DNA from: Verrucomicrobiota bacterium
GTDB lineage: Bacteria; Verrucomicrobiota; Verrucomicrobiia; Verrucomicrobiales; Akkermansiaceae
Length of the DNA stretch: 64,000 nt
Direction: 5' to 3'
NCBI GenBank assembly: GCA_004293285.1
Contig: RDYF01000026.1
Coordinates: forward strand, 6,812 to 70,811
The translations under genes were made by a program, and so were the position numbers. Positions within the stretch are counted from its first letter, which is position 1, and the number at the start of each line of letters is the position of its first letter. The notes beneath the pieces are model-generated. The model was given only the letters and a program-made list of their open reading frames with translations, searched no databases and was not told where the DNA came from. This document shows positions 2,453 through 64,000 of the stretch, piece after piece.

Positions 2453-2565
2453 AAGCGTAGTGGCGGGTGTAAACTCGCAGGGATTTGGCAGTTCAACGGC
2501 AATTTGTAAAGGATTGGATGCGGAAAAAATGATTTTTCTGCGTCCGTAAGGCGGCAGCACAGGAA

Positions 2566-5037
2566 TTACTCGGCATCGATGCGGAAAGGCATGGAGACAT
2601 CGGGGAAATCCTTGAGCGTGAAGTTGATCATGAATCCGTATTCACTGCGGATCCGGTTGTCGCGACGCATCAAGCCGGCGCTGACAATCCAGTTTTCAAA
2701 ATTGCGGTGCATGGTGTATTGCTCCATCTCCAAGGTGTCGTCGGCAAATTCCCATTGCTGCAATAGACCAAAGCCCCAGTTTTCGTTGATGCGCCAATAG
2801 GCTCGGAAATTGATCCGATTGGAGTCGAGCAGGAACGGGTGGTTGTCGAGCATGCGCTGCTGCACCGCAAACTCAAAATTCGGGGTCGGCATGAAGCGTA
2901 AGCCGGTGGTGAACTCGTTGTAGCCCGAACCAGAACCGAAAATCGGGAACTGCAGCTGCCAATCGACCGCCATCCACGGCAAGGGCTGAAAGGTGATGTC
3001 TTGGTAGAGGTTGGAAAATTCGCGATTGAGCTCGGGGTCGTCGATGTAGCTATCGAGATAGGTATCAGTGAAAAGCCACTGATGCGTGCCGCCGTCACGC
3101 TGCGTCAGGAGTCGATTGCGGAAGCCGAGTCGCACAAGGTTCCAGTTGTTCAGGTCATCGATGGCGGTGAAGCGACCGACGCGGATGGGCACGGGGCGGG
3201 TGAAAAAGGTCAGTCGATCAATCTGCGGCGTGCTGGGATCGAGCGAGCTCACCGAGAGATAGGACCAGTGTGCATAGGGCTGGAGGGTGTGCCGCACGCC
3301 ATTGACACCGAGGCTGCTGATGCGGAAATCGGGGTAGTCTTTTTGCAGCTTAAACGAAGCCTCGAGCCCCAGCGACATCATGCCGCGATCGGTATCACCC
3401 GCTACGCCCGAGGCATCGAAATAACGATTGTAGCCCGCTCCCGCGTGAGGAGCGAGATGCAGCCAGTCGGAGATCGTCCACTGTGTGGCAAAGTCTTGGT
3501 ACGTGTGAAAGCGCGAGTATTCCGGGTTGGTGAGCTGACGATAGAGCGTCTCATACTGCGGGTCGCCGGGAGGCAGGGCGCGCAATTGCCCAATCAGAAA
3601 TTGCTCATAGCGCCCCACTTGCGGCAGCATGCGCTGATAGGTGGGATCGGACTCAGGCAAGGTCAGTAAAGGATCCAACAGCGTGTCACGGGTGGGATCG
3701 GCCATGTTTTCCTGGGCCACGGTGAAACTCGTTTGTCCCTCGTGCTGCAGGGCACCGCCGAAGATGGGGCGACGGATGTGATCGAAGGAAATCTCGGGCG
3801 AGCGAGAATCCGCGCGATAGAAGTCATTCACCCGCAGACGCGCTAGTCCGGTGAACAGGGTGGTTTCATCCCGACGCGTAAAAAAGATGGTGTTATCGGG
3901 CTGTGAGTTGTCGCGGTAAAAGCGCGGATCGAAGTCCTCGAGGAAATTGTTGTCGCTCAGGATATGCAGATCGTAGTTGAGAGCATATTCAGCATCTTTG
4001 TTCCAAGGGTCTCGAAATTCCAAGGGAATCCGATACTGGAACTCTGCGCGATAACGATTCGGATCAATCGGGCCGCGGGGAATGCCCGAGCGAGTGATGG
4101 TGGGATCGAGGTCATCGGCGTAGTAGAATTTCATCCAGCCGAGATTGGGATTGTCCGCGAGTCGGGTATCGAAAAGATCCACGCCCGTAGCGAGACCGCG
4201 TCGACTCCGTGCATCGAGGTGCCAGCGCGAGAGCAGCCACGGTTTTTTGCCACCGAGAAAGGCGTTGTCAGCATCGCCCAGCATGATGCCGTAATTTTGC
4301 AGCAGGTAAAAGCCGAGGTTCGTTCGACCACCGGGAAGGAACCGATAGCCGAGCTGGCCATTGAGCGGCTGGCTGAGATAGGGCAGCCAAAAAATCGGGG
4401 TATCGCCAATGAAGAGCTTCAGGTCATCAAACACCACCTTTTCCCCGGGGTAGAGAGTAGTGCGATTCGCTCGCAGCCAATAGTGCGGCAGCTCGACGTC
4501 ATTGGTCGTGATCCCCGCATTTTCGCCAACGAGAATGCGCTCGCCATTTTCATCCATCACGGCATCGAACGAGCCCGCTTCGAGGATGATCGGGTCATAG
4601 CTCACACTGAGACGCGAGGTTTCGAGCTTTTGCGTTTTCAGATCATAAGTCACGCGCTCACCACGTTGGATCATGGGCCCGTTGAAAATGCTGACATGGC
4701 CCTGCAGCAGATACGTTTGGCGATCGAGATCGAGAATCGCTTCATCAGCAAAAACCTCCTCGCCGCGATTCGTCTTCAGCTCAATCGGACCCGAGATGCG
4801 GAAGCGGCGATTGCTGGCATCGAGCGGCTCGATTTTCCCTTGGAGCGAAAGATTGACCCCAGTGGGCAGCTCCGAAGAAACCTGGTGAGGATCGACATGG
4901 GCCGCAGGAGCGGGCGCGGTGAGCTCCGGAATTTCCACCGCAGCGGGTGGCGCGAGATCAGAAGACTCAGGTTCCTGAGCAAAAGCACCCACCAAAAAAG
5001 GCAAAAACCAAAAGCACCAAGAACCCCTCATGAACAA
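2566..5037 (-). CDS. lptD: LPS-assembly outer-membrane protein LptD/OstA-like (823 aa)
   Basis: Signal peptide [22 protein letters not shown]. The OstA-like N-terminal jellyroll pattern is [59 protein letters not shown]. This is followed by ~650 aa rich in aromatic/Gly/Asp beta-barrel-type sequence. The size fits LptD. Confidence 0.55.
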
Positions 5038-5170
5038 ACCCAGAATGCGTGAAGCCCCTCAAATGTAAAGACGGAAATGGACTAGCCAAAGAAGACAAAC
5101 AGAGAATTTCGCCTCATGAAGCTTCGGATGAATTTCTTCAATCAGTCTCACGAAAACAGCATGTCCCCCT

Positions 5171-5351
5171 CATCCAACATCCAACATCCAACATCCAACA
5201 TCCAACATCCAACATCCAACATCCAACATCCAACATCCAACATCCAACATCCAACATCCAACATCCAAATCCAACATCCAACATCCAACATCCAAAATCC
5301 AAAATCCAAAATCCAAAATCCAAAATCCAAAATTCAAAATTCAAAATTCAA
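5171..5351. repeat. Compound heptanucleotide tandem repeat: (CATCCAA)14, one 6-nt unit, (CATCCAA)3, (AATCCAA)5, (AATTCAA)3
   Basis: Units were counted base by base: 5171-5268, 5269-5274, 5275-5295, 5296-5330 and 5331-5351. On the minus strand, which is the sense strand of both flanking genes, the units read TTGGATG / TTGGATT / TTGAATT. Confidence 0.98.
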
Positions 5352-48650: not shown

Positions 48651-49241
48651 ATGATCATCCAATCACGTCACCGTCACGTTTGGGCCATCGGCCTTTGCTG
48701 TGTCTTGTCCACCGCCATCTGGCAGTGGAGAAAGCAACCCACTTCACCCCACTCCGCTCCCACCGCCGCCAAGACCGCGACTTCGGCATCGACACGCCCC
48801 CTGCCCTCACCGTCGACCGATCAATCGATCGCAGAAAAAACAAAGCCCGCTCCTGCGCTGGACCTCGCCGAATTGCAAAGCGAAATCGAAGCCGCTTTGC
48901 GCGAGAACGACTATCCGTCGGCTCACGAATTGATCGATCACAGCATCGCCACATCAAGTCGGACCGCTGAGGAAAAACAGCAACTGCTGGCCATCAAACT
49001 CGGCCTGTTCGGTCGAAACGGCGACCACCAGCAAATGCTCGCACTGATGGATCAGATCATTGCGGAAAACCCCAATTCTGCGCTCGCCGCAAACATGGCG
49101 AAACAGCGCGCCTTTGTCCAAGATTTCGCCGAACGCGATCCACATGACTCCGGCATGTGCGAAACCTGCAACGGCCACCATGCCGAAGGTGAACCCCATC
49201 TCCCCCCCAAAACCGAAAGCCCCCCGAAGAACAAACCCTAA
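48651..49241 (+). CDS. Hypothetical membrane-anchored protein (196 aa)
   Basis: One TM helix (VWAIGLCCVLSTAIWQW), a Pro/Ser/Thr-rich linker and a helical C-terminal part. I recognise no family. Confidence 0.4.
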   Translation: MIIQSRHRHVWAIGLCCVLSTAIWQWRKQPTSPHSAPTAAKTATSASTRPLPSPSTDQSIAEKTKPAPALDLAELQSEIEAALRENDYPSAHELIDHSIATSSRTAEEKQQLLAIKLGLFGRNGDHQQMLALMDQIIAENPNSALAANMAKQRAFVQDFAERDPHDSGMCETCNGHHAEGEPHLPPKTESPPKNKP

Positions 49242-49282: not shown

Positions 49283-52200
49283 ATGAACCACTCCAAAAAA
49301 CCACCCTCTCCCGACCGGCACGGCGGCGTTTCCTTACGCCACTCGCTGCTGGCTTGCCTCTTCGCCACCACGATGACGCATGCTCAAAGCTCCCTTGTTG
49401 CGGTCGATCCCCCGACCTCGGTCACGCCGACTTTCGCTGCGGATTTCAATACCGCTGGCAATTTCCAAGGCTGGTCCGCCAATACCCAAGTCACAGGCAC
49501 CACGGTGTCGGGCGGCTTGCTCACTGGCACCTCATCCTCCAATGACCCTTGGATTCAAACCACCAACATCACCAACGCTCCGGATCTCGATCTGGGCTTC
49601 AATGATTACTTGGAAATCCGCATGCAGCTGCCCGCAACCTACTCCGGTAACATCGAAATCTTTTTCGGTGCGACCGATGCCGGCGTCGCTGCGCAAACAG
49701 GATTCTCCAGCAATCGTATGGTCACGGTGCCGAATGCTGCCATTCCCAAGGACGGCAATTTCCACACCTACCGCATCAACCTCGGCCCCGTGCCGATGTG
49801 GCGCGGCTACCTCAACGACCTACGCATCGACCCCGCAACGGTCAGTGGCACGCCCTTTGCCATCGACTTCATCCGCGTCGGCGATGACGCCACGGAAGTT
49901 TATCAGCGCAACACCATGGACTTTGCCGACAACGGCAGCTACGAATTAAGCTCCAAGCGCTTTCGTTTCCTGTGGAATGCCGAGCGCGAAACCACCTTCG
50001 GCATGAACGCCGCTTGGGCGCGCAAAAATCTCCGCAACGCGGAGGAAGCCTGGCAAATTTATGTGCATCGCTTCGGCTACAACGAGCCTGCAGAAAGCAT
50101 CGATGCCACCAAACGCGCGCTTTATCCGGGCAAGTGGAAAGTCAATTTCCTCTGCTGGTACGACGGCTTCTGGATGAGCGGCAGCGGCAATTCCTACGGC
50201 TTCATGAACATGCACCCCAGCGGACTCCGCGCCGATCCTCCGAGCTGGGTCATTCCTCACGAACTCATGCACGTCTTCCAAATGCACCAAGGCGGAGCCA
50301 ATGTGGGCAACGGCCCCATGGGCAAATGGTGGGAAGCACACGCCAATTACGGACGCGAAATCTGGCTGCAAAACATGAATCGTTCGTACGATACCAACCA
50401 GACGGCATGGACGGGTTTTTCCTCAGGATTTCTCCGCACTTCGAATCTCTTTCACTCGCACGGATCGCACTATTACGACAACTGGCCGATTTTCCAGTAT
50501 GTCGATGAGAATCCCGACAACCTCCCCGATCTGGGCATGTCGACTGGAGCCAATCAGAATGCTTTCTCGGCCCGCCTGTGGCGCGAGTCGCTGTTTCCCG
50601 AATACATCTACGAAGCGCTCGAACGACTTACTCCCAACGTTTCGCTCAAAGACGTGATTGGCGGCTACGCCAGCCGCATGGCCACCGCAAACTTCTCGAA
50701 TCAGGCCGACATCACTGCCTCTCTCAACAACCAAGACCCAGAGCACACGCAGCGCAGGCGCATCACCGACCTCGCGCGTCGGGCCGATGACCCTACTTGG
50801 TTGCAGCCTTACGCGGCATCGCTGCCCATGGCTTTCACCTACGCGACTCACGAACTCATCCCCACCGGCACGGGTGCCGGACGCGTGGTGAGCGTGAATT
50901 TGCGCGGCATCATCAATCCCGATCGACAATCGGATTGGCGCGCGCGCCTCATTGTCATCAATGACGCCGGCGAAGAACGCTACTCGCCGCTGTGGAGCAC
51001 GGGCTCTCAATCGGTCACTCTGGCCGCGAATGAAAATAAGGTGCTACTCAGCGTTGCCGCCACTCCAGGCGATATTCAGCCGACCTATCACCTTGATCGC
51101 GATCAACCTTACATCAGCCACCCCGCTCGCGAGCGTTTTCCTTATGAAATTCAGCTCACGGGAGCGACCGCCCAGGGATCGGGCGTTGGCAGCACGACGA
51201 TGCTGACGCATGCCAATGGCGGCGGACTGAAAGCCAGCACCGCTACCGTCGAAGCCGGAGCTTACGTCGGCCCGAATGCCCGCGTGCTCGATTATGCTGT
51301 GGTCCGCTCCGGCGCACGCGTTGAGGACAATGCCGTCGTCAGCGGTCGCGCGCTGCTGCGCAATGGTGCTGTGGTTCGCGGCCATGCCCGAGTTCGTGAA
51401 TATGCCTTACTGGAATCCTGCGATGTCTCCGGAAACGCCCGCATCGGCGGCCACGTGTGGGTCGGCGGCGGCATGGTTGTCCGCGACAACGCCACTGTCA
51501 AAGGCGTGGGCAATCTGTGGCGCAGTGAAGGCAATGATTTCATCGGCGGCGACGCCGTAATGGACGGCGATTTCCAAAACGGCAATAGCGCAAGCAATGG
51601 CTTCCATTTCGGTTGGGAATGGGGTGGCTTGCAAGATGGCACCATCGCTAGCAAAACCGCACCCGCCGCGTTGTTCGCGAGTTATGAGTTCGCCACAGCT
51701 CACGCCTATGCCGCGAAAGATCAATATGGAGCCACCGATGGCCTCTTGGTGGGCGCACCCGCTTGGGTCAATACCGATGGCACACGCAGTGGCTTCCTCA
51801 GCTTCAATGGCAACGGACAATACGTCTTGCTCAACCGCTGGGTCGGCGATTTCCGCGCGGCGACTTTCACCACCCGCGTCAAATGGGCAGGAGGGTCGGC
51901 CCATCAAGCCCTGTTCCACTTCGGCGATGGCACAACGAACAATCAAATCTACGTCACACCAGCAAACAGCGCCGGCGTCTGCGAATTGCGCGTTGTCAAA
52001 AATGGCACCAGCTACAGCGTTCCCGCTGCCAGCGCACTTCCTATCGGCTCATGGGTCCGACTTTCGGTCGTGTTCGATGGCTCCTCGGCGGCACTTTACA
52101 TCAATGAATCGCTCGCCGGCATCACCGCTTGCCCAGTGCGTCCAGAAGAGGTGCTGCCCGCCGACACCAATGAAACCCCTGCCCACGCCTTCATCGGTCG

Positions 52201-55200
52201 CGGTACGGGCTTGGCCGATTTGCAGGGTTCGATCGATGACTTCAAGGTCTACTCCGCAGCCATCGCCGGCGCTGTCGGCGTCGGCGTAGAACCTCTCGCC
52301 ACCTCCACCACGGAACAAGGCGCACCCGCGACGTTCCGCCTGCGCCGCCTGGCGCTCGATGCCGCATCGCTCGCCGCACCACTGACGGTTCATTACACGA
52401 TGAGCGGTTCCGCCAGCAACGGCGCGGACTACCTCCTCACTGGCAATAGCGCGATCATTCCCGCAAATGCGACCTTTGTCGATGTCACCATCACACCTGT
52501 TCCCGATGGCTCGACCGAGCCCTTGGAAAGCGTCGTCCTCACCGTCAACCCTGCCGCAGGGTATCAGGTGGCCACCGGCAATGCGACCGCGACCATCGAT
52601 TTGATCGACTCCCTGAGTTTGTTCGACAACCAACTTGCTTGGTATCGGTTCAATGAAACCACAGGCACTGTGGCGAATGATAGCTCGAATGCCAACAACG
52701 ACGCGACCTTGGTCAATGGACCTTTGTGGAGCAGCGGATCGTTGTCCTTCGATGGCGCGAACGACTACGTCAACACGCCTGTCGCCAATGGCGGCACGCG
52801 CACTTTGGCCGCTTGGATCAATCCGAGCTCTTCCGCCGCGAAAGGATGCGTCTTTGATACCGACGTTCCTTACCAATACGGCACAGGCTGGGGTGTGGTC
52901 AATGGCACCATCGAAGTCATTCTCGACAATCAATTCTGGGGAACAGGCGTTCCTGTCACCAACAATGCTTGGCAGCACATTGCACTTGCCCTCGATGCCA
53001 CCCAAGCCCGACTGTATGTCAATGGTGCTCTCGCTGCATCACTGAACTACAACCGTGGCGACATCAGCGTAGCGAACTACAGGATTGGCGCGAACTATGG
53101 CAGTGGTGGTGCCAACTTCAACGGCCGCATCCGCGATGCGCGCATTTTTGGCATCGCCGTATCCGATATCGATGCCGCAGATCTGCCAAACGGCACGCTG
53201 CAAGGCCCGACGACAGCTCCCGCCAATGTGACGGCGAATGTGAACAGCGGCTCCGTAGGACTCTCTTGGAGCGCCTCAGGTCCAGCCGGAACTCGTTATT
53301 ACATCGCCCGCGCCACCTCGCCCAGCGGACCTTATGTTTTCATCGGCACCAGCACGAGCACCAGCTTCAACGACAGCGGACTGGCCAATGGCACCGCCTA
53401 TTCGTATGTCGTTTATTCGGCAAATGGCTCTGGCCTCAGCCCAGCAAGCACGGTCATCACGGCCACGCCCGCAGGTGACTTGGTCTGGACCAATAGCACT
53501 GGCAATGGTTTGTGGAATGCCTCCGCCGCCAACTGGTCAAACCAAGTCTGGCAGTCGACAGCGGATGGCGTCATCGCCCACACCAGCAGCCCAGAAACGA
53601 TCACGCTCCAGGGCGCATTGGTCGCAGACTTGTTGCGCATCGGCAATGGCACCAGCAATGCCAACTACACGCTCTTGGGTGCCGCAGGCTCTTCGCTCAG
53701 CGCGAGCGCTCTGCAGATCCAAGGAGCATCCTCCAGCCACCTCGGCATCAATGCGACGACTTCGCTGCAAGACCTGAATCTATCGCTCTCGGCAGATCTT
53801 ACGGTCGGTCGCAGCAATGCCATCATCGGCGGCAATTCCGTGATCACTGCGAATCGCATCGGTGGTGCCATCGGCGGCATTGCCAATGCCGACTGGGGCC
53901 AATTGACGATTCAAGGAAACGCCCAAGTCACAGCCACCAATGGCGTGGTCGGCAATTCGACCGCTTGGGGATTGAACCTCAACGGCGGCACGCTCACCAC
54001 CCCCAGCATTGACTACGGCCCTCACGCCTTCAATGGCACGACCAACCTGAACTTCAACGGCACTTTGGTCAAAGCATCCGCAAACAACGCCGATTTCATC
54101 ACCGTGACGAACGGCTATGACTTTGCGCCGATCATCCACGCGGGCGGTGCCTTGCTGGACACCAATGGCTTCAACATCGGCATCAGCGCCTCGCTCACAG
54201 GCTCGGGCCCGCTGACGAAGCTGGGCCATGGCACTCTGACCCTCAGCGCAGCCAATGCTTTCACCGGCACAACTGCGGTGAATGCGGGCACGCTGGTGCA
54301 ACAGTCGTCGACCGCATCGAGCGCCCACGTTGTCGCCTCTGGTGCCGTGCTGGAACTCAATACCGCCGACACACTGAACGGACCAAGCACCTCGTTTAGC
54401 GGTGGCGGCACTTTGCGGAAATCGGGCACAGGCAATACCACTTGGCCCGCTACCTCGGCAACCTTTGCTCTGGCTGCTGGCTCGTTGATCGACATCCAAG
54501 AGGGCAGCTTTACCGCGGGTTCTTTCGGCAATGAAAATTGGGCCAACAACCTCTCCGACCTCCATGTCGCGTCGGGGGCCGCGTTTCACACGGTCGAAGC
54601 AAACGTCCGCGTCAATCGCATCACCGGCACTGGCACCATCGGCACAGGCTTTGCAGGCGCAGGCTACCAAAACCTCAGCATCGGCGTGAACAATGGCTCC
54701 AGCACCTTTGCCGGATCTCTCGTCAATACCGAAAACAATGCCTCTTGGATCGGCAATCTGGAAAAACTCGGAAGTGGCACGATCACTCTCTCGGGCTTCG
54801 TTTCCCACACCGGCAGCACGACGGTTCGTGCAGGCAAGTTGGTGATCTCTGGAACGGCTTCCGGCACGTCCTCGGTGGCCATTGCCAGCGGGGCAGAGCT
54901 GGAAGTTTCCGGCACGCTCAGCACCACGGGCAACCTGACCAACGATGGCACACTGGTTCTCACCGGTGCCGCCCAGCTCAGTGCAACAGGCACGATCACC
55001 AACAATGGCACGATCATCCATTCCGCTCCTGGCTATGTCCTGCCAGCGAACTTGGTCAACAATGGCACCATTCACGTGCTGCCTGCTGCACCGTCTAGCC
55101 TCACCGCCACCGCAGGCATTGCTCAGATCGCTCTGAGCTGGCCCGCCGTTGCCGGAGCATCGAGCTATGTGGTCAAGCAAGCGGTTTCTGCAAGCGGTCC

Positions 55201-55900
55201 TTTTACAACCATCGCTACGCCAACCAGCACCAGCCACACCGCGACGGGACTCGTGGGCGGCATGACGTACTACTTTGTGGTCAGTGCGGTCAACGTCGCT
55301 GGAGAAGGCGCTGCCTCAGCAGTAGCATCGGCCACGCCAACAATCTCATTGCCCGCACCTCGCCTCACGGCTGATATCGGCAATGTCGGTCTCGCAGGAA
55401 ATGCTCTGTTCAACGCCGGAACCTACACTCTCCAAGGCGCGGGCACGGGCTTTTCGGGCACAGCCGATGGCTGCCGTTTTGTCTATCAAACCGGCACGGG
55501 AGATTGCAGCGTTACCATCCGCGTGCAAAGCCTCACCAACACCGGCACAAATGCACGAGTGGGCGTAATGATCCGCGAGTCGCTCAATGCCAACGCCATC
55601 AGCGCAGGAGTTTGGCTCGCACCCACCAGCGGCGTTCACTTCACCCGACGCACCTCCACAGGAGGCACAACGGCGGTCAGCAGTGTCAGCGGCAGAACCG
55701 CGCCACAGTGGCTGCGCATCACCCGCACGGGCAATACCTTCCGTGCGTTCTACTCTGCCAATGGCACCAACTGGACGCAGTTTGGCAACAACCGCACGAT
55801 CTCAATGAGCTCGACAACCCTCATCGGCATCGCTACAAGTAGCGGCACTACCGCGACTCTCTGCACCGGTGTTATGACCAATGAATCCGTTACTCCTTGA
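49283..55900 (+). CDS. Giant secreted multidomain protein, 2205 aa. Domain order: CBM-like module, HExxH zincin-like domain, left-handed beta-helix, LamG x2, Calx-beta, FN3 x2, autotransporter-associated beta-strand repeats, C-terminal LamG-like domain.
   Basis: Signal peptide. HELMH is at 50258-50272 (VIPHELMHVFQMHQGG...WWEAHANYGRE). It has a hexapeptide-like stretch (ARVLDYAVVRSGARVEDNAVVSGRALLRNGAVVRGHARV). The Calx-beta-like segment is PLTVHYTMSGSASNGADYLL...FVDVTITPVPDGSTEPLESVVLTV. The FN3 segment is LSWSASGPAGTRYYIARATS...GTAYSYVVYSANGSG. It has many G.LTK.G.GTLTLS repeats. Confidence 0.75.
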   Translation: MNHSKKPPSPDRHGGVSLRHSLLACLFATTMTHAQSSLVAVDPPTSVTPTFAADFNTAGNFQGWSANTQVTGTTVSGGLLTGTSSSNDPWIQTTNITNAPDLDLGFNDYLEIRMQLPATYSGNIEIFFGATDAGVAAQTGFSSNRMVTVPNAAIPKDGNFHTYRINLGPVPMWRGYLNDLRIDPATVSGTPFAIDFIRVGDDATEVYQRNTMDFADNGSYELSSKRFRFLWNAERETTFGMNAAWARKNLRNAEEAWQIYVHRFGYNEPAESIDATKRALYPGKWKVNFLCWYDGFWMSGSGNSYGFMNMHPSGLRADPPSWVIPHELMHVFQMHQGGANVGNGPMGKWWEAHANYGREIWLQNMNRSYDTNQTAWTGFSSGFLRTSNLFHSHGSHYYDNWPIFQYVDENPDNLPDLGMSTGANQNAFSARLWRESLFPEYIYEALERLTPNVSLKDVIGGYASRMATANFSNQADITASLNNQDPEHTQRRRITDLARRADDPTWLQPYAASLPMAFTYATHELIPTGTGAGRVVSVNLRGIINPDRQSDWRARLIVINDAGEERYSPLWSTGSQSVTLAANENKVLLSVAATPGDIQPTYHLDRDQPYISHPARERFPYEIQLTGATAQGSGVGSTTMLTHANGGGLKASTATVEAGAYVGPNARVLDYAVVRSGARVEDNAVVSGRALLRNGAVVRGHARVREYALLESCDVSGNARIGGHVWVGGGMVVRDNATVKGVGNLWRSEGNDFIGGDAVMDGDFQNGNSASNGFHFGWEWGGLQDGTIASKTAPAALFASYEFATAHAYAAKDQYGATDGLLVGAPAWVNTDGTRSGFLSFNGNGQYVLLNRWVGDFRAATFTTRVKWAGGSAHQALFHFGDGTTNNQIYVTPANSAGVCELRVVKNGTSYSVPAASALPIGSWVRLSVVFDGSSAALYINESLAGITACPVRPEEVLPADTNETPAHAFIGRGTGLADLQGSIDDFKVYSAAIAGAVGVGVEPLATSTTEQGAPATFRLRRLALDAASLAAPLTVHYTMSGSASNGADYLLTGNSAIIPANATFVDVTITPVPDGSTEPLESVVLTVNPAAGYQVATGNATATIDLIDSLSLFDNQLAWYRFNETTGTVANDSSNANNDATLVNGPLWSSGSLSFDGANDYVNTPVANGGTRTLAAWINPSSSAAKGCVFDTDVPYQYGTGWGVVNGTIEVILDNQFWGTGVPVTNNAWQHIALALDATQARLYVNGALAASLNYNRGDISVANYRIGANYGSGGANFNGRIRDARIFGIAVSDIDAADLPNGTLQGPTTAPANVTANVNSGSVGLSWSASGPAGTRYYIARATSPSGPYVFIGTSTSTSFNDSGLANGTAYSYVVYSANGSGLSPASTVITATPAGDLVWTNSTGNGLWNASAANWSNQVWQSTADGVIAHTSSPETITLQGALVADLLRIGNGTSNANYTLLGAAGSSLSASALQIQGASSSHLGINATTSLQDLNLSLSADLTVGRSNAIIGGNSVITANRIGGAIGGIANADWGQLTIQGNAQVTATNGVVGNSTAWGLNLNGGTLTTPSIDYGPHAFNGTTNLNFNGTLVKASANNADFITVTNGYDFAPIIHAGGALLDTNGFNIGISASLTGSGPLTKLGHGTLTLSAANAFTGTTAVNAGTLVQQSSTASSAHVVASGAVLELNTADTLNGPSTSFSGGGTLRKSGTGNTTWPATSATFALAAGSLIDIQEGSFTAGSFGNENWANNLSDLHVASGAAFHTVEANVRVNRITGTGTIGTGFAGAGYQNLSIGVNNGSSTFAGSLVNTENNASWIGNLEKLGSGTITLSGFVSHTGSTTVRAGKLVISGTASGTSSVAIASGAELEVSGTLSTTGNLTNDGTLVLTGAAQLSATGTITNNGTIIHSAPGYVLPANLVNNGTIHVLPAAPSSLTATAGIAQIALSWPAVAGASSYVVKQAVSASGPFTTIATPTSTSHTATGLVGGMTYYFVVSAVNVAGEGAASAVASATPTISLPAPRLTADIGNVGLAGNALFNAGTYTLQGAGTGFSGTADGCRFVYQTGTGDCSVTIRVQSLTNTGTNARVGVMIRESLNANAISAGVWLAPTSGVHFTRRTSTGGTTAVSSVSGRTAPQWLRITRTGNTFRAFYSANGTNWTQFGNNRTISMSSTTLIGIATSSGTTATLCTGVMTNESVTP

Positions 55901-55903
55901 TTG

Positions 55904-56716
55904 ATGAATAAAGCAGCATGGCTCTCCGGCATTGGCACTTTGCTTTTGGCATTCCTTGCGGTCCTCTGGTTCCGCATGGATGACACCAAGCAAACGAGTT
56001 CATCGTCGCTGCGCTCGATGTCGAGCGCCCGACAAAACGCCGGAGCCCATGATGCAACCAGCCGACAGCGCGCCTTCTCTCGCTTTTCGCAACAAAGCGA
56101 AGAAGAGCGCCGCTCGCTGCTGCGCGATGGGGTAAAAGAAGACCCTAACGCAACCGCCGCATGGACGCTCGCCCTGCCTCCGGGCGAACTGCGCGATCAG
56201 GCCATCCAACAAGTCGCCTTGGCTTGGCAAGCCGAAGAGGAACAAGCCGCATGGAACTGGGCTTTATCGCTCGAACCCGCCTCCACTCGCGATGCCACGA
56301 TGATGGCACTCGCCTACGAACTCACTCGCCACGACCCTGCTCTGGCATTCGCCCGCGCCCAATCGATCGCCGAAGGCGCTGCACTTCTCCCCTTGATCGA
56401 ACACATCGTCGCCAACTGGGCACTGCAAGATCCTGCCACGGCATTGACCGAAGTCCGCAATCTTCCCCACGATGACCAACGGCATGCCGCTCTGGTGAGT
56501 CTCACAACCAGTTGGGCTGAGTCCAATCCCGCAGCCGCCGCCACTCTCGCCGTGGAATCGCTGCCCGCAGGCCCGCAACAAAATCGCGCAGTCGCCGCGA
56601 TCGTCCAACGCTGGGCCCAACAAGACCCCGAAGCCGTGGAACAATGGGTCGCCACTTTTCCGGACGGACCCATCAAAGAAAACGCCCTCGAACACATCGA
56701 ACACCTCGCGCATTGA
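55904..56716 (+). CDS. Membrane-anchored helical-repeat (HEAT-like) hypothetical protein
   Basis: The start overlaps the stop of the upstream gene (cct tga ttg atg). One TM helix (WLSGIGTLLLAFLAVLWF). Repeated ...A..W...DP.AA..W motifs. Confidence 0.5.
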   Translation: MNKAAWLSGIGTLLLAFLAVLWFRMDDTKQTSSSSLRSMSSARQNAGAHDATSRQRAFSRFSQQSEEERRSLLRDGVKEDPNATAAWTLALPPGELRDQAIQQVALAWQAEEEQAAWNWALSLEPASTRDATMMALAYELTRHDPALAFARAQSIAEGAALLPLIEHIVANWALQDPATALTEVRNLPHDDQRHAALVSLTTSWAESNPAAAATLAVESLPAGPQQNRAVAAIVQRWAQQDPEAVEQWVATFPDGPIKENALEHIEHLAH

Positions 56717-56744
56717 CCTTCGATCGCTTGAAAAAAAATGCCGC

Positions 56745-59700
56745 TTACGGTGGAGCCGTCGAGGAAACTTGCAGTCGACCGAAAATGCCACGGGCTCTCG
56801 CAGCCGGTACGGTGATGATGACTGTGTCGGTTCCTGCTTGCGGAGTGTTTGACTGAATTTCCACCATACCGCCATGCACGATGGGCACGTCGGTCCAGTC
56901 CTGGAGATTGTTGCTGTATTGAAAAATCTGCGTGGTATCTGCCTGAGCCATGGTCTGTCGGGTAAAGGCAAATACCATATGACCGGACTCCTCGCGCGCC
57001 GAAGGCCACAAGTGGTGCGAGGGTGCTTGGGGATTCCCTCCCAAAACATACTCGAGAATGTTGGCCATGCCGTCTTGATCCTCGTCGCCCAAGGGGCCAC
57101 TGGTGAGCTGATGAAAAGCACGACCCGACCATGTGGCAAAGTCAGCAAAGTCTGGCCCACGAGTCACGGTAAGCGAACCCGTTCCCGAAAGAAATCCCGA
57201 GCCCGCCGCATAGACCCCCGGCGGCAAGGCACGACCATCCACCGTCAGACCGCCAATTCGATCGGTGCCAATGTAGTCGAGATGAAGCATCGCCCCGGCT
57301 GCGACATGGACATCGGCACTGTCGGCCAAATTTGCCGAATTGCTGCCATTTCCTAAATGCAACATGCCACCCTGCACATGCGTCGGACCGCTGTAAGCAT
57401 TCACGCCGCGCAGCACCACTGTGCCATTGCCTCGTTTTTCCAACGACGCCGCACCTAAACCCACCCAGTCCTCGACCGTGCCTGTCACTGTGAGTGTGCG
57501 ACCCGTGCCAACATCCCACGTCATCGCTCCAGCGACGAGCATGCGATTTCCTATCGTTAGATTTTTGCTGTCGGACGCAATCGAAATCCGTCCCCCCAAT
57601 GAGGGAGCGACCCATTGATCCACCATCGCAGGAGCCATGTGAATGATCGCAGAACCGCCGATGTTGATATCGGTGCGCAGACCACTGAGCAGAGAAAGAT
57701 TGCCCCACCCGTGAATGGCGTCGACGCTGATGTTTCCTTGGATCGTATTGATATCAAACTGGTAATTGGCCCACTCAGTCCATGTGTCGTCCAAGTAGTT
57801 GGCAGCCGTGCGGAAATCCGTGTTCGTGTCTCCTTGCCAAATGTGCGTGGTCACAACACGGGAAATGCTCAAGTTGTCGATCCGCGTGATGTTGTAGGAT
57901 CCATTGAAAGGATTGGCGGAGAAGCTGATCCAACCATCGCCAGCCACGAGTTGAGGCAAGACATAGACTCCGACAAGTGTGCCGCCGTTGTAGAGAATCG
58001 CTTTCGATCCATTGCCATCGAACGCGGAGCCTAGACCATCGGTATCGGTGAGTATGATGCGAAAGCTGTTGCTGCTGCGACGAACGATCGGTTGCATCAC
58101 GCCATTAACCCAGACTTGTATGCTACCGTTGAGTGTCGGCAGGATGCCAAACTTCGCTCCATTGCTCACGGCGATGATGTTTTGTCTACTGCCGATGGTG
58201 ATCGAGGACCAGCAATCGCCATTCGACGTATCACTCACGGTAGCGTCGAACTCTAACGAAATCGGCTGCCTCAACGAGTTGGCCATCGAGGAGAAATCTT
58301 CGTTCAAACTCGCACTCGATGCGAATCCCGCATCGCCCACCAACAACATGCTGCCACCATTTCCATGTTGTGCCTGCCAACCTTGACCACCAGTCGTCAC
58401 GCTGTAGGTCGTGGGAGCAAGAAAACCCCGCTGATCGGTGCTCAAACTGTTGTTGAATTCGCCAGCACTGAAGCTCGGAGAATTGAAATCATCGCTCAGC
58501 AACAAAGTGCCACTGCTGCCTGATGTGGCGACGGTGACCGCATGGAGTTGCTCACTGGTAAGCGCGGTGGTGTAAAATTGCACGTCGTCGAGCGAACCCG
58601 CAAACATCGGCATGAGGCTTCCTTCCGAGCGAGCGAGGTAGTGATGCGAAGCCGCTGTCGGGATGTTTTCCGCAAGAAGTTGATCGGGACGCAAGCTGAT
58701 CGGGCCACGCGCTGCCTCGTTGCCGTTGACATACAACACCCCCGTGCTGCCATCGAGCGACACCGCCACGTGTGACCACACTCCTGTGGGCAGGGAAGCG
58801 GTGCTGAGCGTTTGCTCAACTCCGTCACGGGCGATCGAAAATTTCGTTAGACCAGCACCATCGTCTGGCGTGAGGCAGAGTCGACGCGTCGACGAAGCTC
58901 CCAACCACAACACCGCTTGGTTGGCAAGGCCACCCTCCGGTTTCACCCAGGCGGCGAAAGTCCATGCTCGGCTGTCGGCGACACTGCGATCGAGGAGGAT
59001 CGATTGACTGTTGCCATCGAATTGCAGAAAGCCTTTGCGTCGACCATCCGTGAAAGTCCAACGCGGGGTACCCTGAGGGAAGGCATCGACGACGCCATAC
59101 TGATCCAAGACCCGAGAATCGTGCGCTTGGCGAAAATCGTATGCCACATACAGCCCCGTGGGCGTCGTCGTGGTGAAGTTGTCCGGAATCCCGACAAAAG
59201 GCAAATGCCCGAAGGTGACGCCGCCGCTGAGAGACTTGTTGCCCATGTAATCGCCATCGACGATGGCATTGCCACTGAGCGTGCCGCCGACCTGATGAAG
59301 GGCGCTGCCTTTGGCCACGGCATTGCCCTGCATGTCGGCTTCCACCGTGGCATGCTCGAGCACTCGTGCGTTGCCGGAAATGGTGCCGCCATCGACAATC
59401 GCCCAATCGCGCACGCGGGCCTCGTTGGTGACGGTGCCACCTCGCACCCATGCATTGCCGCTAATGATGGCATTGCCTTGGACCGTTCCGCCCGAAACCA
59501 CGGCAAAGTCTTCGATGCGTGCATTGCCACTCACCGAGCCACCGGTCACGCGGGCGTTTGGACCGATGAAAACCGTATTCGGCACCGACACCGATCTCCA
59601 GCCGCCGCCATTGACATGCTGTGTCATGCCTACCGTCGATCCATTGTTGCGCACGCGCGGGGTCGCTCCGGTGATCTGCACTTGGTAGTGAAAACGCGAA

Positions 59701-61535
59701 CGCGATGGATGCGAACGAAAACGAAATGAGGCTTCGTCATGCCCACCATAATGATAGACATCGGGCGTACCCGCCACGGACAAGAACACCCGATTTTCGT
59801 CGGCAGCGAGAGTAATGGATTGCACGCCATGACTCCACAACGGCGTGTAACGCTCCACACCGCCATCGCTCACCGCGATCAACGAAGCGCGCCAATCTGC
59901 CCCGCGCGCGGAGTCGGCCAAGCCCTGCAAATTCACCGTCACCACACGACCAGCACCCGACCCGTTAGGAACTAGCTCGTGCATGGCATACGCACCTTGA
60001 GCCGGCGCTTTGTGCGATGGCACCCGCCACCAGCCCGGAGCATCGGGCCGTTGCAATAGATCGGTGAAAAGATGCCGCGCATTGCGTATCGGATCTTGCA
60101 AGTTGAGCTCAGCCGTCATGGCCGATTGATTGGAGAAATCCCAGGTCGCACATCGCCGCGCGTAGTATCCTGATAGATCTTTCAGCGAAGTCGTCGGAGT
60201 GATCCGATCCAACGCCATCATCGCAAATTCCCCTGGCTGCGTTTCTTGCCAAACACGCTTGATCGTACCTTCGCCGATGTCCGATAGGTTGTCGGGATTG
60301 GTGTCCACGTAGTACATGAACGGCCAAGTGAGATAGTAGTTGCGGCCCGACGACATCATGAAATGACCGTCGCGCACACCAAGAGCTTCGATGTTTGAAC
60401 CGTTGGGATAGAAATCCTGATAGTGCTGAATCCAGCGCTCTCGACCGTAATTGGCATGTGTTTCATACCACTCGCCATGGATATGACCTGAGGCATTGTG
60501 AAACTGAAAAGCGTGCATCAGTTCGTGAGGAATGATCCAAGAGGGAGGGCTCACGCGTAGTCCATCGGGCGTGATGTTCAGATACCCGAGTGCCATGCCG
60601 CCATGATCGTCCACTCCCGCCCAGTAACCGCTGTAGTAGCTGATGACATTGAGCTTGTATGCCGTACCGCTATTGCTGCCGATCGGATACCCGGGCTGGC
60701 GATAGCCGAGAACTTTGGTATACACCTGCCACGCTTCTTCCAAATTGCGCAGTGTGCCGCGCGCCATGTCGGAAGTCCACTCCGCGCGCGCACTGACGCT
60801 GCTATTCCAGATGAATCGAAAGCGCTTGGATTCCAGTGACGACACCGCCGTACCAGCTCCGAACGCAGCACCGCTGGGCGTAGCCCCTCCCGCAGCAGGA
60901 CACTGGGCAGTGAAACGCGGCTGATAAACCAGCGCATTGGGCTCGTCGCCCACGCGAATGTAGTCGATGGCAAAAGCCACGCCCGATGTCGTTCCAGGGG
61001 CGATGCGCAAGTGACTCAACAACGCTCGCCACCAAGGCTCCAAGCCCACATCGATTCGATAGACATGAAATGCGCCGTCTTTCGGAATCATCGCGTTAGG
61101 AATGGTGATCGTCCGCGCCGCATTGAAACCTGACGTGCCAGTGGTGCCGTACCAAATCCGCATGTCACTCGCGAAGTTCGCTGGGACCTGAAAACGGATT
61201 TCCAAAAAATCATTGAACCCCAGATCCAAATCCGCCCGCTCAGCCGCAGGAATGGTCCGCGATAAGGTCGGATTTGTGCCACTGGTAGTGCCCGTAAGCA
61301 CCCCGCTGCCCGCCGTCGCGCCGGTGATTTGACTGGCCGTCCAGCTCTCCAAGGTGCTGCCATTCCACTCGACAGCATAAGTGCCCGATAACGATGTCGC
61401 AGGGTCGACCACGATGGGCAGGTCGATGGCCGACACTGAGCACACGGGCGCGCCCAGGCCCATCAACACGCACGCCATTACGGAGAAACGGACATTTGTG
61501 CGAGCCTTGATGCGACTCGGCAAAGCCCGTGCCAT
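56745..61535 (-). CDS. Giant secreted paralogue of 49283-55900. Domain order: CBM-like module, HExxH zincin-like domain, beta-helix, LamG-type domains, autotransporter-associated beta-strand repeats, C-terminal DEDQDG...ILEY..GGNP domain.
   Basis: HELMH is on the minus strand at 60527-60513 (IIPHELMHAFQFHN...WYETHANYGRE). Long blocks are collinear with the 2205-aa protein (DLDLGFNDFLEIRF..., SKRFRFIWN, AFAIDYIRVGDE, GAGRVVTVNLQG..., RFHYQVQITGATP). The likely start is the ATG at 61535 (MARALPSRIKARTNVRFSVMACVLMGLGAPVCSVSA). The ORF track extends it to 61853. Confidence 0.75.
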   Translation of the reverse strand: MARALPSRIKARTNVRFSVMACVLMGLGAPVCSVSAIDLPIVVDPATSLSGTYAVEWNGSTLESWTASQITGATAGSGVLTGTTSGTNPTLSRTIPAAERADLDLGFNDFLEIRFQVPANFASDMRIWYGTTGTSGFNAARTITIPNAMIPKDGAFHVYRIDVGLEPWWRALLSHLRIAPGTTSGVAFAIDYIRVGDEPNALVYQPRFTAQCPAAGGATPSGAAFGAGTAVSSLESKRFRFIWNSSVSARAEWTSDMARGTLRNLEEAWQVYTKVLGYRQPGYPIGSNSGTAYKLNVISYYSGYWAGVDDHGGMALGYLNITPDGLRVSPPSWIIPHELMHAFQFHNASGHIHGEWYETHANYGRERWIQHYQDFYPNGSNIEALGVRDGHFMMSSGRNYYLTWPFMYYVDTNPDNLSDIGEGTIKRVWQETQPGEFAMMALDRITPTTSLKDLSGYYARRCATWDFSNQSAMTAELNLQDPIRNARHLFTDLLQRPDAPGWWRVPSHKAPAQGAYAMHELVPNGSGAGRVVTVNLQGLADSARGADWRASLIAVSDGGVERYTPLWSHGVQSITLAADENRVFLSVAGTPDVYHYGGHDEASFRFRSHPSRSRFHYQVQITGATPRVRNNGSTVGMTQHVNGGGWRSVSVPNTVFIGPNARVTGGSVSGNARIEDFAVVSGGTVQGNAIISGNAWVRGGTVTNEARVRDWAIVDGGTISGNARVLEHATVEADMQGNAVAKGSALHQVGGTLSGNAIVDGDYMGNKSLSGGVTFGHLPFVGIPDNFTTTTPTGLYVAYDFRQAHDSRVLDQYGVVDAFPQGTPRWTFTDGRRKGFLQFDGNSQSILLDRSVADSRAWTFAAWVKPEGGLANQAVLWLGASSTRRLCLTPDDGAGLTKFSIARDGVEQTLSTASLPTGVWSHVAVSLDGSTGVLYVNGNEAARGPISLRPDQLLAENIPTAASHHYLARSEGSLMPMFAGSLDDVQFYTTALTSEQLHAVTVATSGSSGTLLLSDDFNSPSFSAGEFNNSLSTDQRGFLAPTTYSVTTGGQGWQAQHGNGGSMLLVGDAGFASSASLNEDFSSMANSLRQPISLEFDATVSDTSNGDCWSSITIGSRQNIIAVSNGAKFGILPTLNGSIQVWVNGVMQPIVRRSSNSFRIILTDTDGLGSAFDGNGSKAILYNGGTLVGVYVLPQLVAGDGWISFSANPFNGSYNITRIDNLSISRVVTTHIWQGDTNTDFRTAANYLDDTWTEWANYQFDINTIQGNISVDAIHGWGNLSLLSGLRTDINIGGSAIIHMAPAMVDQWVAPSLGGRISIASDSKNLTIGNRMLVAGAMTWDVGTGRTLTVTGTVEDWVGLGAASLEKRGNGTVVLRGVNAYSGPTHVQGGMLHLGNGSNSANLADSADVHVAAGAMLHLDYIGTDRIGGLTVDGRALPPGVYAAGSGFLSGTGSLTVTRGPDFADFATWSGRAFHQLTSGPLGDEDQDGMANILEYVLGGNPQAPSHHLWPSAREESGHMVFAFTRQTMAQADTTQIFQYSNNLQDWTDVPIVHGGMVEIQSNTPQAGTDTVIITVPAARARGIFGRLQVSSTAPP

Positions 61536-61930: not shown

Positions 61931-64000
61931 ATGCTCAAAACATTTCTTTTCTTGAGCTTGTGCCAAATCTGCGCTTTGGCCCAAGTCCAGTTTTCCGGAG
62001 TTTATCCTCATCTCGTTCTCTCGAATCGCGAGGGCGAATGCGGACCCGGTGCGGTCGTGCCTTGGGCCGACCGACTCTGGGTCATCACCTACGGCCCCCA
62101 CTTGCCGAAGGGGTCGAGCGATAAGCTCTATGAAATCACCCCCGACTTGCAAAAAATCGTCCGCCCAGAAAGCATCGGCGGCACTCCGGCGAATCGCATG
62201 ATTCACGAGGAATCGCAGCAGTTGTTCATCGGACCTTATGTCATCGATGCCAAGGGCGGCGTGCGCACGATTCCTTACACCACGATGTTTGGTCGTCACA
62301 CCGGCAATGCCCGTCATTTGACGGATCCTGCGGGGAAAATTCTCTTCGCCACGATGGAAGAAGGCATTTACGAAGTGGATGTCAAAACGCTCGAAGTCAA
62401 AGACCTGTGGATCGATGAGCAGTTGGTCAGAAATGGACCACTGAAAAAAGGCGTGCAGGAAAATAAGTCGGGACGCGCGGCGAATTTGCCCGGCTATCAC
62501 GGCAAGGGATTTTACTCGTCGCAAGGTCGCTACGTTTACGCCAATAACGGCGATCACGCGAGTGAAGCGCGCAGCAATCCTCGCGTGCCCAGTGGCGTGC
62601 TGGCGGAATGGGACGGCAAGGCCGATGCCTGGACGGTGGTGCGACGCAATCAATTCACCGAAGTCACTGGCCCCGGCGGCATCATGGGCCGCGCCGATTC
62701 CCCCGATGCCCCCCTATGGGCCATGGGCTGGGATCATCGCTCGCTGTTGCTGATGTGCCTGCATCAAGGAAAATGGCATTCCTATCGCCTGCCGAAGGGC
62801 TCGCACTCGTACGATGGCGCTCACGGCTGGAATACGGAGTGGCCGCGCATTCGCGACATCGGCGAAAAGGATCTGCTGATGACCATGCACGGCACGTTCT
62901 GGCATTTCCCGAAAAATTTCCATCCGCAACAATCGGCCGGTATCACTCCTCGCTCGAATTACCTCAAGGTGGTCGGCGATTTCTGTGAATGGCAGGGCAA
63001 GGTGGTGCTCGGCTGCGACGACACCGCGAAGTCGGAGTTTCTCAACAAACGCTCGGCCAAAGGGGAAATCGCTCCGCCGCGCTCGCAATCGAATCTCTGG
63101 TTCGTGGACCATGATCGACTCGACCAACTCGGCTCGCCCATTGGTCGCGGTGCCGTGTGGCTGAATGATCGCGTGAAGGCCGATGAAGCCTCGGAAGCAT
63201 TTCTGTTTGCCGGCTATCATCATCGCGCTTTGCATCTCCGTCACCAAGGAAATCAGCCGATCCGACTACGCCTGGAGGTCGACCGCAAAGGCAAGGGCAC
63301 ATGGAGCCCGCTCGCCACTGTCACGGCGGCACCAGGAGCGCTGACGACTCATGTGTTTTCTCCGCAAGAAGCAGGAGCATGGGTGCGCGTAGTGGCGCTC
63401 GATGCCGCCGACTCGCTCACCGCCACTTTCACCTATCGCGCGCAAGCTCGTCATCTCAGCCCCGATACCAAGCTCTTCGCTGGTGTGGCCGATGAGTCGA
63501 CGAAAGCCCTCACGGGTGGCCTGATTCGCGCCCTAGATCACGACTCGCTCGCACTCGGCATGGTCGCCACCGATGCCGCTGGCACGCCGACGGGTTACTA
63601 CACGATGAATGCCGACATGAAGCTGGTTCCCAGCACCGATGCCGCCGCATACGACTACGCACAAAAACACACGAAGATTGCGGAAAAGGCCTATCAGATC
63701 GATGACGCTTCGGCCCTGATCATCGATGACAAAGGCCAGCGCTGGCGCTTTCCGCTCAGCGAGATGGCTCGCCCTGCGGGTGAATTTGGCAAAACACGCG
63801 TCGTGCGCGAGGTCGCTACCGAGCGCGATTTCCTCAATCTCGGCGGCTCTTTCTACGAACTTCCTGCCGAAAATGCGGGCGGCTTTGCCATGGCACGACC
63901 CGTCTGCACGCACAACCGCTTGGTTCACGATTTCTGTTCTTGGCATGGCCTCTTGCTCTTCACCGGCATCGATGCCAAGGAGAACAACAACCCCCATGTG
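61931..64000 (+). CDS. Conserved-looking secreted hypothetical protein (partial, 690 codons, continues beyond the window end)
   Basis: ATG at 61931, signal peptide MLKTFLFLSLCQICALAQ. I read all 690 codons to the window edge and found no stop. It is not in the ORF track because it is edge-truncated. I recognise no family. Confidence 0.6.
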   Translation, partial: MLKTFLFLSLCQICALAQVQFSGVYPHLVLSNREGECGPGAVVPWADRLWVITYGPHLPKGSSDKLYEITPDLQKIVRPESIGGTPANRMIHEESQQLFIGPYVIDAKGGVRTIPYTTMFGRHTGNARHLTDPAGKILFATMEEGIYEVDVKTLEVKDLWIDEQLVRNGPLKKGVQENKSGRAANLPGYHGKGFYSSQGRYVYANNGDHASEARSNPRVPSGVLAEWDGKADAWTVVRRNQFTEVTGPGGIMGRADSPDAPLWAMGWDHRSLLLMCLHQGKWHSYRLPKGSHSYDGAHGWNTEWPRIRDIGEKDLLMTMHGTFWHFPKNFHPQQSAGITPRSNYLKVVGDFCEWQGKVVLGCDDTAKSEFLNKRSAKGEIAPPRSQSNLWFVDHDRLDQLGSPIGRGAVWLNDRVKADEASEAFLFAGYHHRALHLRHQGNQPIRLRLEVDRKGKGTWSPLATVTAAPGALTTHVFSPQEAGAWVRVVALDAADSLTATFTYRAQARHLSPDTKLFAGVADESTKALTGGLIRALDHDSLALGMVATDAAGTPTGYYTMNADMKLVPSTDAAAYDYAQKHTKIAEKAYQIDDASALIIDDKGQRWRFPLSEMARPAGEFGKTRVVREVATERDFLNLGGSFYELPAENAGGFAMARPVCTHNRLVHDFCSWHGLLLFTGIDAKENNNPHV

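Follow-up and report, generated by a model that had tools for sequence, protein, structure and literature searches.

A convergent pair of giant multidomain proteins with a shared head of the Svx/DUF6055 peptidase superfamily in a freshwater-type verrucomicrobium

Introduction

Svx of Pectobacterium atrosepticum is a zinc peptidase of the gluzincin type (HEXXHX(22)E), which is sensitive to ethylenediaminetetraacetic acid (EDTA) and impaired by the substitutions E141A and E167A, and it has a fold closest to that of the M60 O-glycopeptidase ZmpB, a sugar pocket that includes W136, G137, and N171, and a left-handed beta-helix as its second domain (PMC9266454). The enzyme cleaves extensins, for which the beta-helix is required through the recognition of arabinan, and its hydrolysis of azocasein is independent of the beta-helix (PMC13164431, 2026). 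So far, work on Svx-type peptidases has been confined to their part in the virulence of soft-rot and Xanthomonas pathogens of plants. In the present study, we describe P0001 and P0002, two very large proteins that contain a homologous peptidase domain and are encoded by convergent genes in a stretch of 64,000 nucleotides (the window) of contig RDYF01000026.1 (positions 6,812 to 70,811 of the forward strand) in the assembly GCA_004293285.1 of a Verrucomicrobiota bacterium of the family Akkermansiaceae.

The kind of enzyme is already known as Svx/DUF6055, although it has been little studied, and it is the architecture of P0001 and P0002 that is new. A literature search for DUF6055/PF19527 returned a single unrelated mention, and a search for the autotransporter-associated beta strand in combination with Verrucomicrobia returned nothing. 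Relative to the literature searched, a conserved head of four domains, an unnamed domain with the fold of a carbohydrate-binding module (CBM) within it, and the abundance of such heads in free-living bacteria of the Planctomycetes-Verrucomicrobia-Chlamydiae (PVC) group are the new elements. As described below, a much larger and architecturally richer branch of the Svx family is commonly found in uncultivated Verrucomicrobiota from fresh water and soil and in neighbouring groups.

Results and Discussion

P0001 and P0002 share a collinear head

The two genes and the domains of their heads are as follows.

49283..55900, plus strand: P0001, a secreted multidomain protein of 2205 aa (whole gene including the stop codon)
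49388..49897, plus strand: N-terminal CBM-fold beta-sandwich of P0001 (aa 36-205), of an unnamed family
49925..51175, plus strand: DUF6055/Svx-type gluzincin peptidase of P0001 with its C-terminal beta-sandwich (aa ~215-631)
50258..50335, plus strand: zinc site of P0001, H326-E-L-M-H330 ... E351, followed by H353-A-N355-Y
51185..51622, plus strand: left-handed, acyltransferase-like beta-helix of P0001 (aa ~635-780; Hexapep, GMPPB_C, and YdcK matches)
51665..52258, plus strand: first LamG domain of P0001 and last domain of the head (aa ~795-992; Laminin_G_3)
56745..61535, minus strand: P0002, a secreted multidomain paralogue of P0001 of 1596 aa (ATG at 61535; stop codon included)
60921..61427, minus strand: N-terminal CBM-fold domain of P0002 (aa 37-205), 47% identical to that of P0001
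59658..60893, minus strand: DUF6055/Svx-type peptidase of P0002 (aa ~215-626)
60513-60527 and 60462-60464, minus strand: zinc site of P0002, HELMH (aa 337-341) and Glu358, respectively
58545..59618, minus strand: beta-helix (aa ~640-775) and LamG domain (aa ~800-997) of P0002 (YdcK, Laminin_G_3)

The minus-strand open reading frame (ORF) of P0002 is open from 61853 to 56745, and the ATG at 61535 was chosen because it is followed by a typical signal peptide. By inspection, signal peptides were assigned to aa 1-36 of P0002 (MARALPSRIKARTNVRFSVMACVLMGLGAPVCSVSA|IDL, with a positively charged n-region, a hydrophobic core, and SVSA|I) and to aa 1-34 of P0001 (...TTMTHA|QSS). In a BLASTP comparison, the two proteins were aligned with 693 bits (E = 0.0) and 409 identities over 1017 positions (40%). 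The collinear stretch begins at the signal peptides and closes with the first LamG domain, beyond which there were only short matches at the level of repeats. An earlier note on this DNA had described two convergent proteins of 2205 and about 1600 aa with collinear N-terminal halves, and the ORFs and the BLASTP alignment confirm this description, as does the presence in both proteins of the blocks that it listed (DLDLGFND, IPKDG.FH.YRI, FAID.IRVGD, SKRFRF.WN, PPSW.IPHELMH, W.E.HANYGRE, NPDNL, the GAGRVV block, and RF.Y..Q.TGAT). The two genes are a facing pair insofar as they are convergent, but they are not immediately adjacent, because an ORF of 270 aa (55904-56716) lies between them.

The head, which comprises 965 aa, is composed of a CBM-like sandwich, a peptidase with a trailing Ig-like beta-sandwich, a left-handed beta-helix, and a LamG domain. 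The hexapeptide beta-helix followed by LamG, which was part of the earlier description, was found in both proteins by matches to Hexapep/YdcK-type families and Laminin_G_3, and the region of P0002 that contains the two domains also matched PDB entry 4qvs (1.3e-12). In both proteins, the beta-helix directly follows the peptidase domain, as in the Svx/AvrXca family.

The peptidase domain belongs to the Svx/DUF6055 superfamily

The peptidase domain matched Pfam DUF6055 (PF19527) with 100.9 bits in P0001 (1.1e-28, aa 249-631) and 121.6 bits in P0002 (5.3e-35), both exceeding the gathering threshold of 27 bits, and NCBIfam NF040510 (Svx/AvrXca family virulence/avirulence protein) with E-values of 3.2e-32 and 1e-37, respectively. 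On P0002, the latter match extends over profile positions 41-519 of 601, from the peptidase into the hexapeptide beta-helix. Thus, the head module, which had been thought to be unassignable to a named family, falls into Pfam DUF6055 and the Svx/AvrXca superfamily of NCBIfam, that is, a peptidase family and not a well-characterised family of non-proteases.

When 64 homologues with identities of 32-83% were aligned, the residues H326, E327, H330, and E351 (P0001 numbering) were invariant, and H353, A354, N355, Y356, and E359 were conserved in at least 90% of the sequences. Both proteins conform to the motif HEXXH-X(8,28)-E, with HELMH followed by X20-E in P0001 and by X16-E in P0002, so that the glutamate lies 20 (E351) and 16 (E358) residues after the second histidine and not about 23 residues downstream as had been noted, whereas the spacing in Svx is 22. 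As judged from the alignment, the invariance of HExxH and the glutamate across 64 diverged homologues is unexpected for a pseudo-enzyme. The residues W322 (His-4) and N355 (Glu+4) correspond to W136 and N171 of the Svx sugar pocket; W322 is present in most homologues and N355 in at least 90%. The earlier suggestion of a gluzincin-type, M60-like, glycan-guided metalloprotease is supported by the invariant HExxH...E, by the fold matches to ZmpB and ZmpC described below, and by the relationship to Svx, a zinc peptidase with specificity for a glycoprotein (PMC9266454, PMC13164431).

The likeness to Svx (Pectobacterium/Dickeya) and AvrXca (Xanthomonas) thus comprises a homologous HEXXH-X(n)-E peptidase with a signal peptide before it and a beta-helix directly after it. 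Svx, however, is a protein of ~600 aa with two domains, to which P0001 and P0002 add the CBM-fold N-terminal domain (N-domain), the LamG domain, and tails of 600-1200 aa, and their host is a free-living freshwater-type verrucomicrobium, whereas that of Svx is a plant pathogen. The M60 O-glycopeptidases (ZmpB and ZmpC of Clostridium perfringens; PF13402) are similar in the gluzincin fold (Foldseek E ~3e-7, probability 1.0), in the motif HEXXHX(8,28)E, and in having carbohydrate-binding modules around the catalytic domain. They differ in that they have no beta-helix, carry CBM32 and CBM51, and act on animal mucins; moreover, neither P0001 nor P0002 matched PF13402 (Peptidase_M60) at E <= 0.1, and no M60 chain was retrieved by a profile search of the PDB.

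Predicted structure of the head

An AlphaFold2 model of aa 36-1000 of P0001, built on the homologue alignment, had a pLDDT (predicted local distance difference test) of 93.6 and a pTM (predicted template modelling score) of 0.91. In this model, the domain limits are ~36-205 for the N-terminal beta-sandwich, ~215-631 for the alpha/beta-plus-helical peptidase with its sandwich, ~635-780 for the beta-helix, in which short strands recur with a period of six residues, and ~795-992 for the LamG jelly-roll. The pTM, from which alone the geometry is read, indicates that the four domains would be held in a fixed, rigid arrangement. A Foldseek search of the PDB with the head retrieved ZmpB (5kdj/5kds), ZmpC (6xsz), and 7js4 with E-values of 3e-7 to 6e-7 and probabilities of 0.99-1.0, together with LamG/CBM40 folds of the lectin type, which included AbnA domain 4, the lectin domain of trans-sialidase, and the LamG domain of PAPP-A. 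There is no solved structure of DUF6055, and a profile search of the PDB with the whole head returned only LamG and hexapeptide-repeat chains.

The N-domain by itself had no sequence match in Pfam, NCBIfam, or the PDB. When it was modelled alone by AlphaFold2 (pLDDT 87.3), its Foldseek matches were CBM29, CBM15, CBM22, CBM16, CBM30, and CBM4 with E-values of 5e-5 to 1e-3 and target-normalised TM-scores of 0.5-0.64. The designation of this part of the head as CBM-like is therefore right at the level of the fold, although the domain lies outside the catalogued CBM families. Its invariant residues include DLDLG.ND, DG..H.YR, WR..L, and D..R.GD. The N-domain was also observed as a mobile module in proteins of 800-1400 aa in which no catalytic domain was recognised (P0074, P0099, P0103, P0116, and P0143), where it forms tandem arrays of 3-6 copies, in some cases with the addition of He_PIG, TSP3, or RibLong.

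Distribution, phylogeny, and paralogues

When aa 36-640 of P0001 were searched against 1.84 billion representative proteins, 938 relatives were retrieved at E <= 1e-3, of which 133 were found at E <= 1e-30. A word-indexed search with the 965-aa head yielded 120 clusters, and more than 80 of these, mostly from Verrucomicrobiota, could be aligned over 99-100% of the head, with identities of 40-50%. Where names were given, the clusters were called DUF6055 domain-containing, LamG-like jellyroll fold domain-containing, autotransporter-associated beta strand protein, or carbonic anhydrase/acetyltransferase-like. In a scan of species-representative genomes, there were 174 relatives, the best 80 of which were almost all from metagenome-assembled genomes (MAGs) of Verrucomicrobiota (Akkermansiaceae, Luteolibacter, Chthoniobacter, Limisphaerales, Prosthecobacter, and Rariglobus), with a few from Lentisphaerota, Armatimonadota, and one planctomycete; lakes and rivers were the main sources. 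Heads that do not have the N-domain were found in Herbivorax, Acetivibrio alkalicellulosi, a Porticoccaceae MAG, and a Bathyarchaeota MAG.

Four DUF6055 genes are present in the genome that contains the window (3.02 Mb in 240 contigs, 90% complete), namely, P0001, P0002, a third giant on contig C13, and a minimal Svx-like gene on contig C35.

C13, about 2-5205, minus strand: third giant paralogue, which runs off the contig end, with a junction near C13:4225-4270
C35:1693-3138, plus strand: minimal Svx-like DUF6055 gene (300 bits), which ends at the edge of the 3.1-kb contig

The C13 paralogue combines a P0002-like head (73% identity towards its C-terminal end) with a P0001-like FN3 tail. Compared with P0002, it has a deletion of 94 nucleotides right after HELMH..HHNA, by which the Glu ligand and HANYGRE are removed and the frame is shifted, and it is thus either a pseudogene in decay or an assembly error. 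In the gene on C35, the peptidase (AHEFTH...WFWESHAEW) comes immediately after the signal peptide, and a beta-sandwich and the first part of a beta-helix come next.

In a FastTree phylogeny, P0001 was grouped with P0153 (83% identity), P0002 with P0177 (77%), and the C13 copy with P0173 (84%), each with high support, and P0001 was placed in a different subclade from that of P0002 and the C13 copy. Because the closest relatives of both proteins are found in other genomes and the two belong to separate subclades, the pair in the window represents old paralogues, and a recent local duplication, in which sense the earlier note could speak of a duplicated pair, was rejected. A conserved convergent unit of two genes was rejected as well, since P0153 (locus L006) has no facing paralogue, and two heads occur together in only 1 of the 80 related loci, where they are in tandem. 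P0153, the homologue of P0001 on a metagenome contig from the European Nucleotide Archive (L006, 10001-18119), is called there as two overlapping genes of 1363 and 1350 aa, and this split is probably due to a frameshift or sequencing error in a single giant gene.

The tails differ, and P0002 ends in a position-locked module

The regions that follow the heads are as follows.

52280..55897, plus strand: tail of P0001, with a Calx-beta-like region, a second LamG, FN3, ~530 aa of PATR-type repeats, another FN3, and a C-terminal DUF1349-like ConA-fold domain
57126..58523, minus strand: tail of P0002, with a beta-rich region (aa 1005-1232) and PATR-type repeats (aa 1235-1470; PATR/TIGR02601 match)
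56748..57125, minus strand: C-terminal module of P0002, ~125 aa, W..F..DxDxDG..N.LEY..G..P ... F.RL.V

With respect to P0001, the two fn3 domains of the earlier description, the PATR repeats, the second Laminin_G_3, and the terminal DUF1349-like ConA-fold domain were all recovered, but Calx-beta was matched only weakly (17.3 bits against a cut-off of 27). The terminal DUF1349-like domain was also observed at the end of two ORF fragments at contig edges. With respect to P0002, the module DEDQDG..ILEY..GGNP was confirmed, whereas the additional LamG-type modules proposed for aa 1005-1232 were not, as this region had no match in the Pfam and NCBIfam scans or in the sequence and profile searches of the PDB. 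Both tails resemble the giant PATR proteins of Verrucomicrobiota (TIGR02601/PF12951), in line with the annotation of several homologues as such; unlike those, P0001 and P0002 are defined by an enzymatic head, and they have no autotransporter beta-barrel.

The C-terminal module of P0002, in which a Ca-loop-like DxDxDG..N.LEY..G..P precedes a small beta-rich domain that ends in F.RL.V, had no match in Pfam, NCBIfam, or the PDB. A profile built from four copies of the module in the same genome gave 15 matches there, and the full module is present in 14 ORFs, terminating 0-4 residues before the stop codon in 13 of these 14 carriers. The carriers are unrelated large ORFs, for example, on contigs C170, C171, C209, C239, C104, C215, and C55. 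Twelve other genomes of the genus were searched with the profile, and 11 of them had 25-56 matches each, whereas the twelfth had 5; a genome from the same order had 90. The module is thus an uncatalogued, position-locked domain of Verrucomicrobiota that occurs order-wide, and from its position we propose it as a candidate address or retention (sorting) domain. As a folded unit of ~100-125 aa with which many unrelated exported proteins of one genome end, it resembles the C-terminal domain of the type IX secretion system (T9SS; Por_Secre_tail), but no sequence relationship was found, and the likeness is that of a candidate functional analogue. A T9SS is not known from Verrucomicrobiota.

No autotransporter beta-barrel family of Pfam or NCBIfam, PEP-CTERM motif, or credible lipobox was found in P0001 or P0002. 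For this reason, we infer the surface anchoring suggested in the earlier note only tentatively, and on better grounds for P0002, which alone has the candidate C-terminal sorting domain, than for P0001. The two proteins provide a natural comparison, in which one enzymatic head is placed on two different C-terminal address domains.

Proposed function and alternative explanations

We consider it likely that P0001 and P0002 are Sec-exported, zinc-dependent, Svx-like glycoprotein peptidases, in which lectin domains position the substrate and the tails provide reach or attachment. In such a mechanism, both proteins would be exported by Sec, zinc would be held by H326, H330, and E351, and E327 would act as the general base (P0001 numbering). 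By analogy with Svx, the lectin-type domains may grip the glycans of a heavily O-glycosylated, rod-like protein, the backbone of which would then enter the active site, and the head would probably work as a glycan-guided cleaver of glycoproteins. The variable tails (PATR, FN3, and LamG/ConA-type) may serve as spacers or adhesion modules that keep the head either at a distance from the cell surface or close against it, and P0002 would probably be addressed to or retained at this surface by its C-terminal module. Candidate substrates, again suggested by analogy, are the hydroxyproline-rich (extensin-type) glycoproteins of plants and algae and mucin-like proteins, the former because Svx sets a precedent and because degraders of plant biomass have related heads. 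The analysis establishes the homology, the conservation of the active-site residues, the folds, the conserved architecture, and the locked position of the C-terminal module, whereas catalytic activity, the glycoprotein nature of the substrate, the export route, and localisation are all inferred for the two proteins.

Several points weigh against this interpretation. For the verrucomicrobial subfamily, the interpretation draws on sequence, models, and the analogy with Svx. The NF040510 scores (111.9 bits for P0001 and 130.1 bits for P0002) are far below the equivalog cut-off of 625; P0001 and P0002 are, therefore, homologues of Svx, and not orthologues or equivalogs, and the specificity of Svx is not transferable to them. 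The glycine of the Svx sugar pocket, G137 (His-3), is replaced here by Val or Ile. Neither anchoring nor export machinery was found for the two proteins. The beta-L-arabinofuranosidase GH127, which would be expected for the stripping of extensin, is absent from the 90%-complete genome, and the idea of an extensin-degrading toolkit is weakened accordingly. Finally, the family is patchy within the genus, being present in 5 of 16 genomes, and the DUF6055 head is thus an accessory trait.

Each of the alternatives that we weighed is less likely than a glycoprotein peptidase. That the proteins are adhesins without catalysis, using the peptidase-like domain as a binding scaffold and attaching to particles or cells through PATR, FN3, and LamG, would agree with the fact that more than half of P0001 and of P0002 consists of adhesin-type repeats, with the tandem arrays of the N-domain that occur without a peptidase, and with the C13 paralogue, which, as assembled, has no Glu-ligand segment. 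We nevertheless regard it as improbable, because HExxH and the Glu ligand are invariant across the 64 diverged homologues, and because the C13 copy, which is also frameshifted, looks more like a product of decay or misassembly than like a form adapted to a role without catalysis. About equally improbable, in our estimate, is a peptidase that acts on unglycosylated proteins, either for nutrient scavenging or for the processing of the cell's own surface proteins, with lectin folds that are structural only. Although Svx cuts azocasein without its beta-helix, GH127 is absent, and glycan binding by the lectin-type folds is a prediction from the fold only, such an activity would leave unexplained the rigid packing of three lectin-type folds on the peptidase (pTM 0.91), the conservation of the tryptophan and asparagine of the sugar pocket, and the presence of related heads that have no N-domain in the plant-biomass degraders Herbivorax and Acetivibrio alkalicellulosi.

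It is still less probable, to the point of being very unlikely, that the beta-helix is a real acyltransferase or the head a carbohydrate-active catalyst, which would make the proteins bifunctional glycan-modifying enzymes rather than mainly proteases. This was suggested by profile matches to hexapeptide transferases of the LpxA, YdcK, and NeuD types and by the name carbonic anhydrase/acetyltransferase-like protein that the Joint Genome Institute gives to several homologues; the matches, however, are at the level of repeats only, and their 14-48 bits fall far short of the curated cut-offs. Acyltransferases of the hexapeptide type work in the cytoplasm as trimers and use acyl-coenzyme A or acyl-acyl carrier protein, which are unavailable outside the cell, and P0001 and P0002, as proteins predicted to be extracellular, would have no acyl donor. 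Furthermore, the beta-helix of Svx is needed for arabinan recognition, not for catalysis (PMC13164431).

A glycoprotein peptidase of this kind, if it is specific for glycoproteins, would be a candidate for the degradation of algal and plant hydroxyproline-rich glycoproteins or mucin-like polymers in carbon cycling and possibly a source of O-glycoprotein-specific proteases for glycoproteomics. A more far-reaching idea, which we put forward only tentatively and consider rather unlikely as a whole, is that the head of four domains is a dedicated machine of free-living PVC bacteria for cutting heavily O-glycosylated proteins of algal or plant walls or mucilage. Each of its lectin-type domains would then recognise a glycan feature of its own, and the tails would direct this one enzyme to distinct surface systems, in one case by way of the C-terminal tag of P0002. 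If this were true, the Svx family would have a role in carbon turnover beyond plant pathogenesis, and the N-domain would represent a new CBM family.

Neighbouring genes

The genes next to P0001 and P0002 are as follows.

48651..49241, plus strand: membrane-anchored helical protein of 196 aa, with an N-terminal transmembrane helix, a helical body, and the C-terminal sequence HDSGMCETCNGHH
55904-56716, plus strand: the ORF of 270 aa between P0001 and P0002, with a transmembrane helix and helical repeats
61931-64000, plus strand, continuing on contig C119: secreted protein of 811 aa, divergent to P0002

The ORF of 270 aa begins 3 nucleotides past the stop codon of P0001 (TGA TTG ATG) and is probably co-transcribed with it. 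It was rejected as a conserved partner, since no homologue was found in any of the 80 related loci; one distant paralogue is present on contig C15. The 811-aa protein beside P0002 had no match in Pfam, NCBIfam, or the PDB, and homologues with 36-42% identity are located a few kb downstream of DUF6055 heads in loci L041 and L077.

The ORF of 196 aa, which had no Pfam match, stops 41 nucleotides upstream of P0001. Its homologues (38-47% identity) are located directly upstream of the P0001 orthologues in loci L006 and L007, and in L008, a homologue lies directly downstream of a P0001 orthologue of 2723 aa, overlapping the stop codon of the latter. This protein is syntenic with the P0001 subclade and possibly a partner of it.

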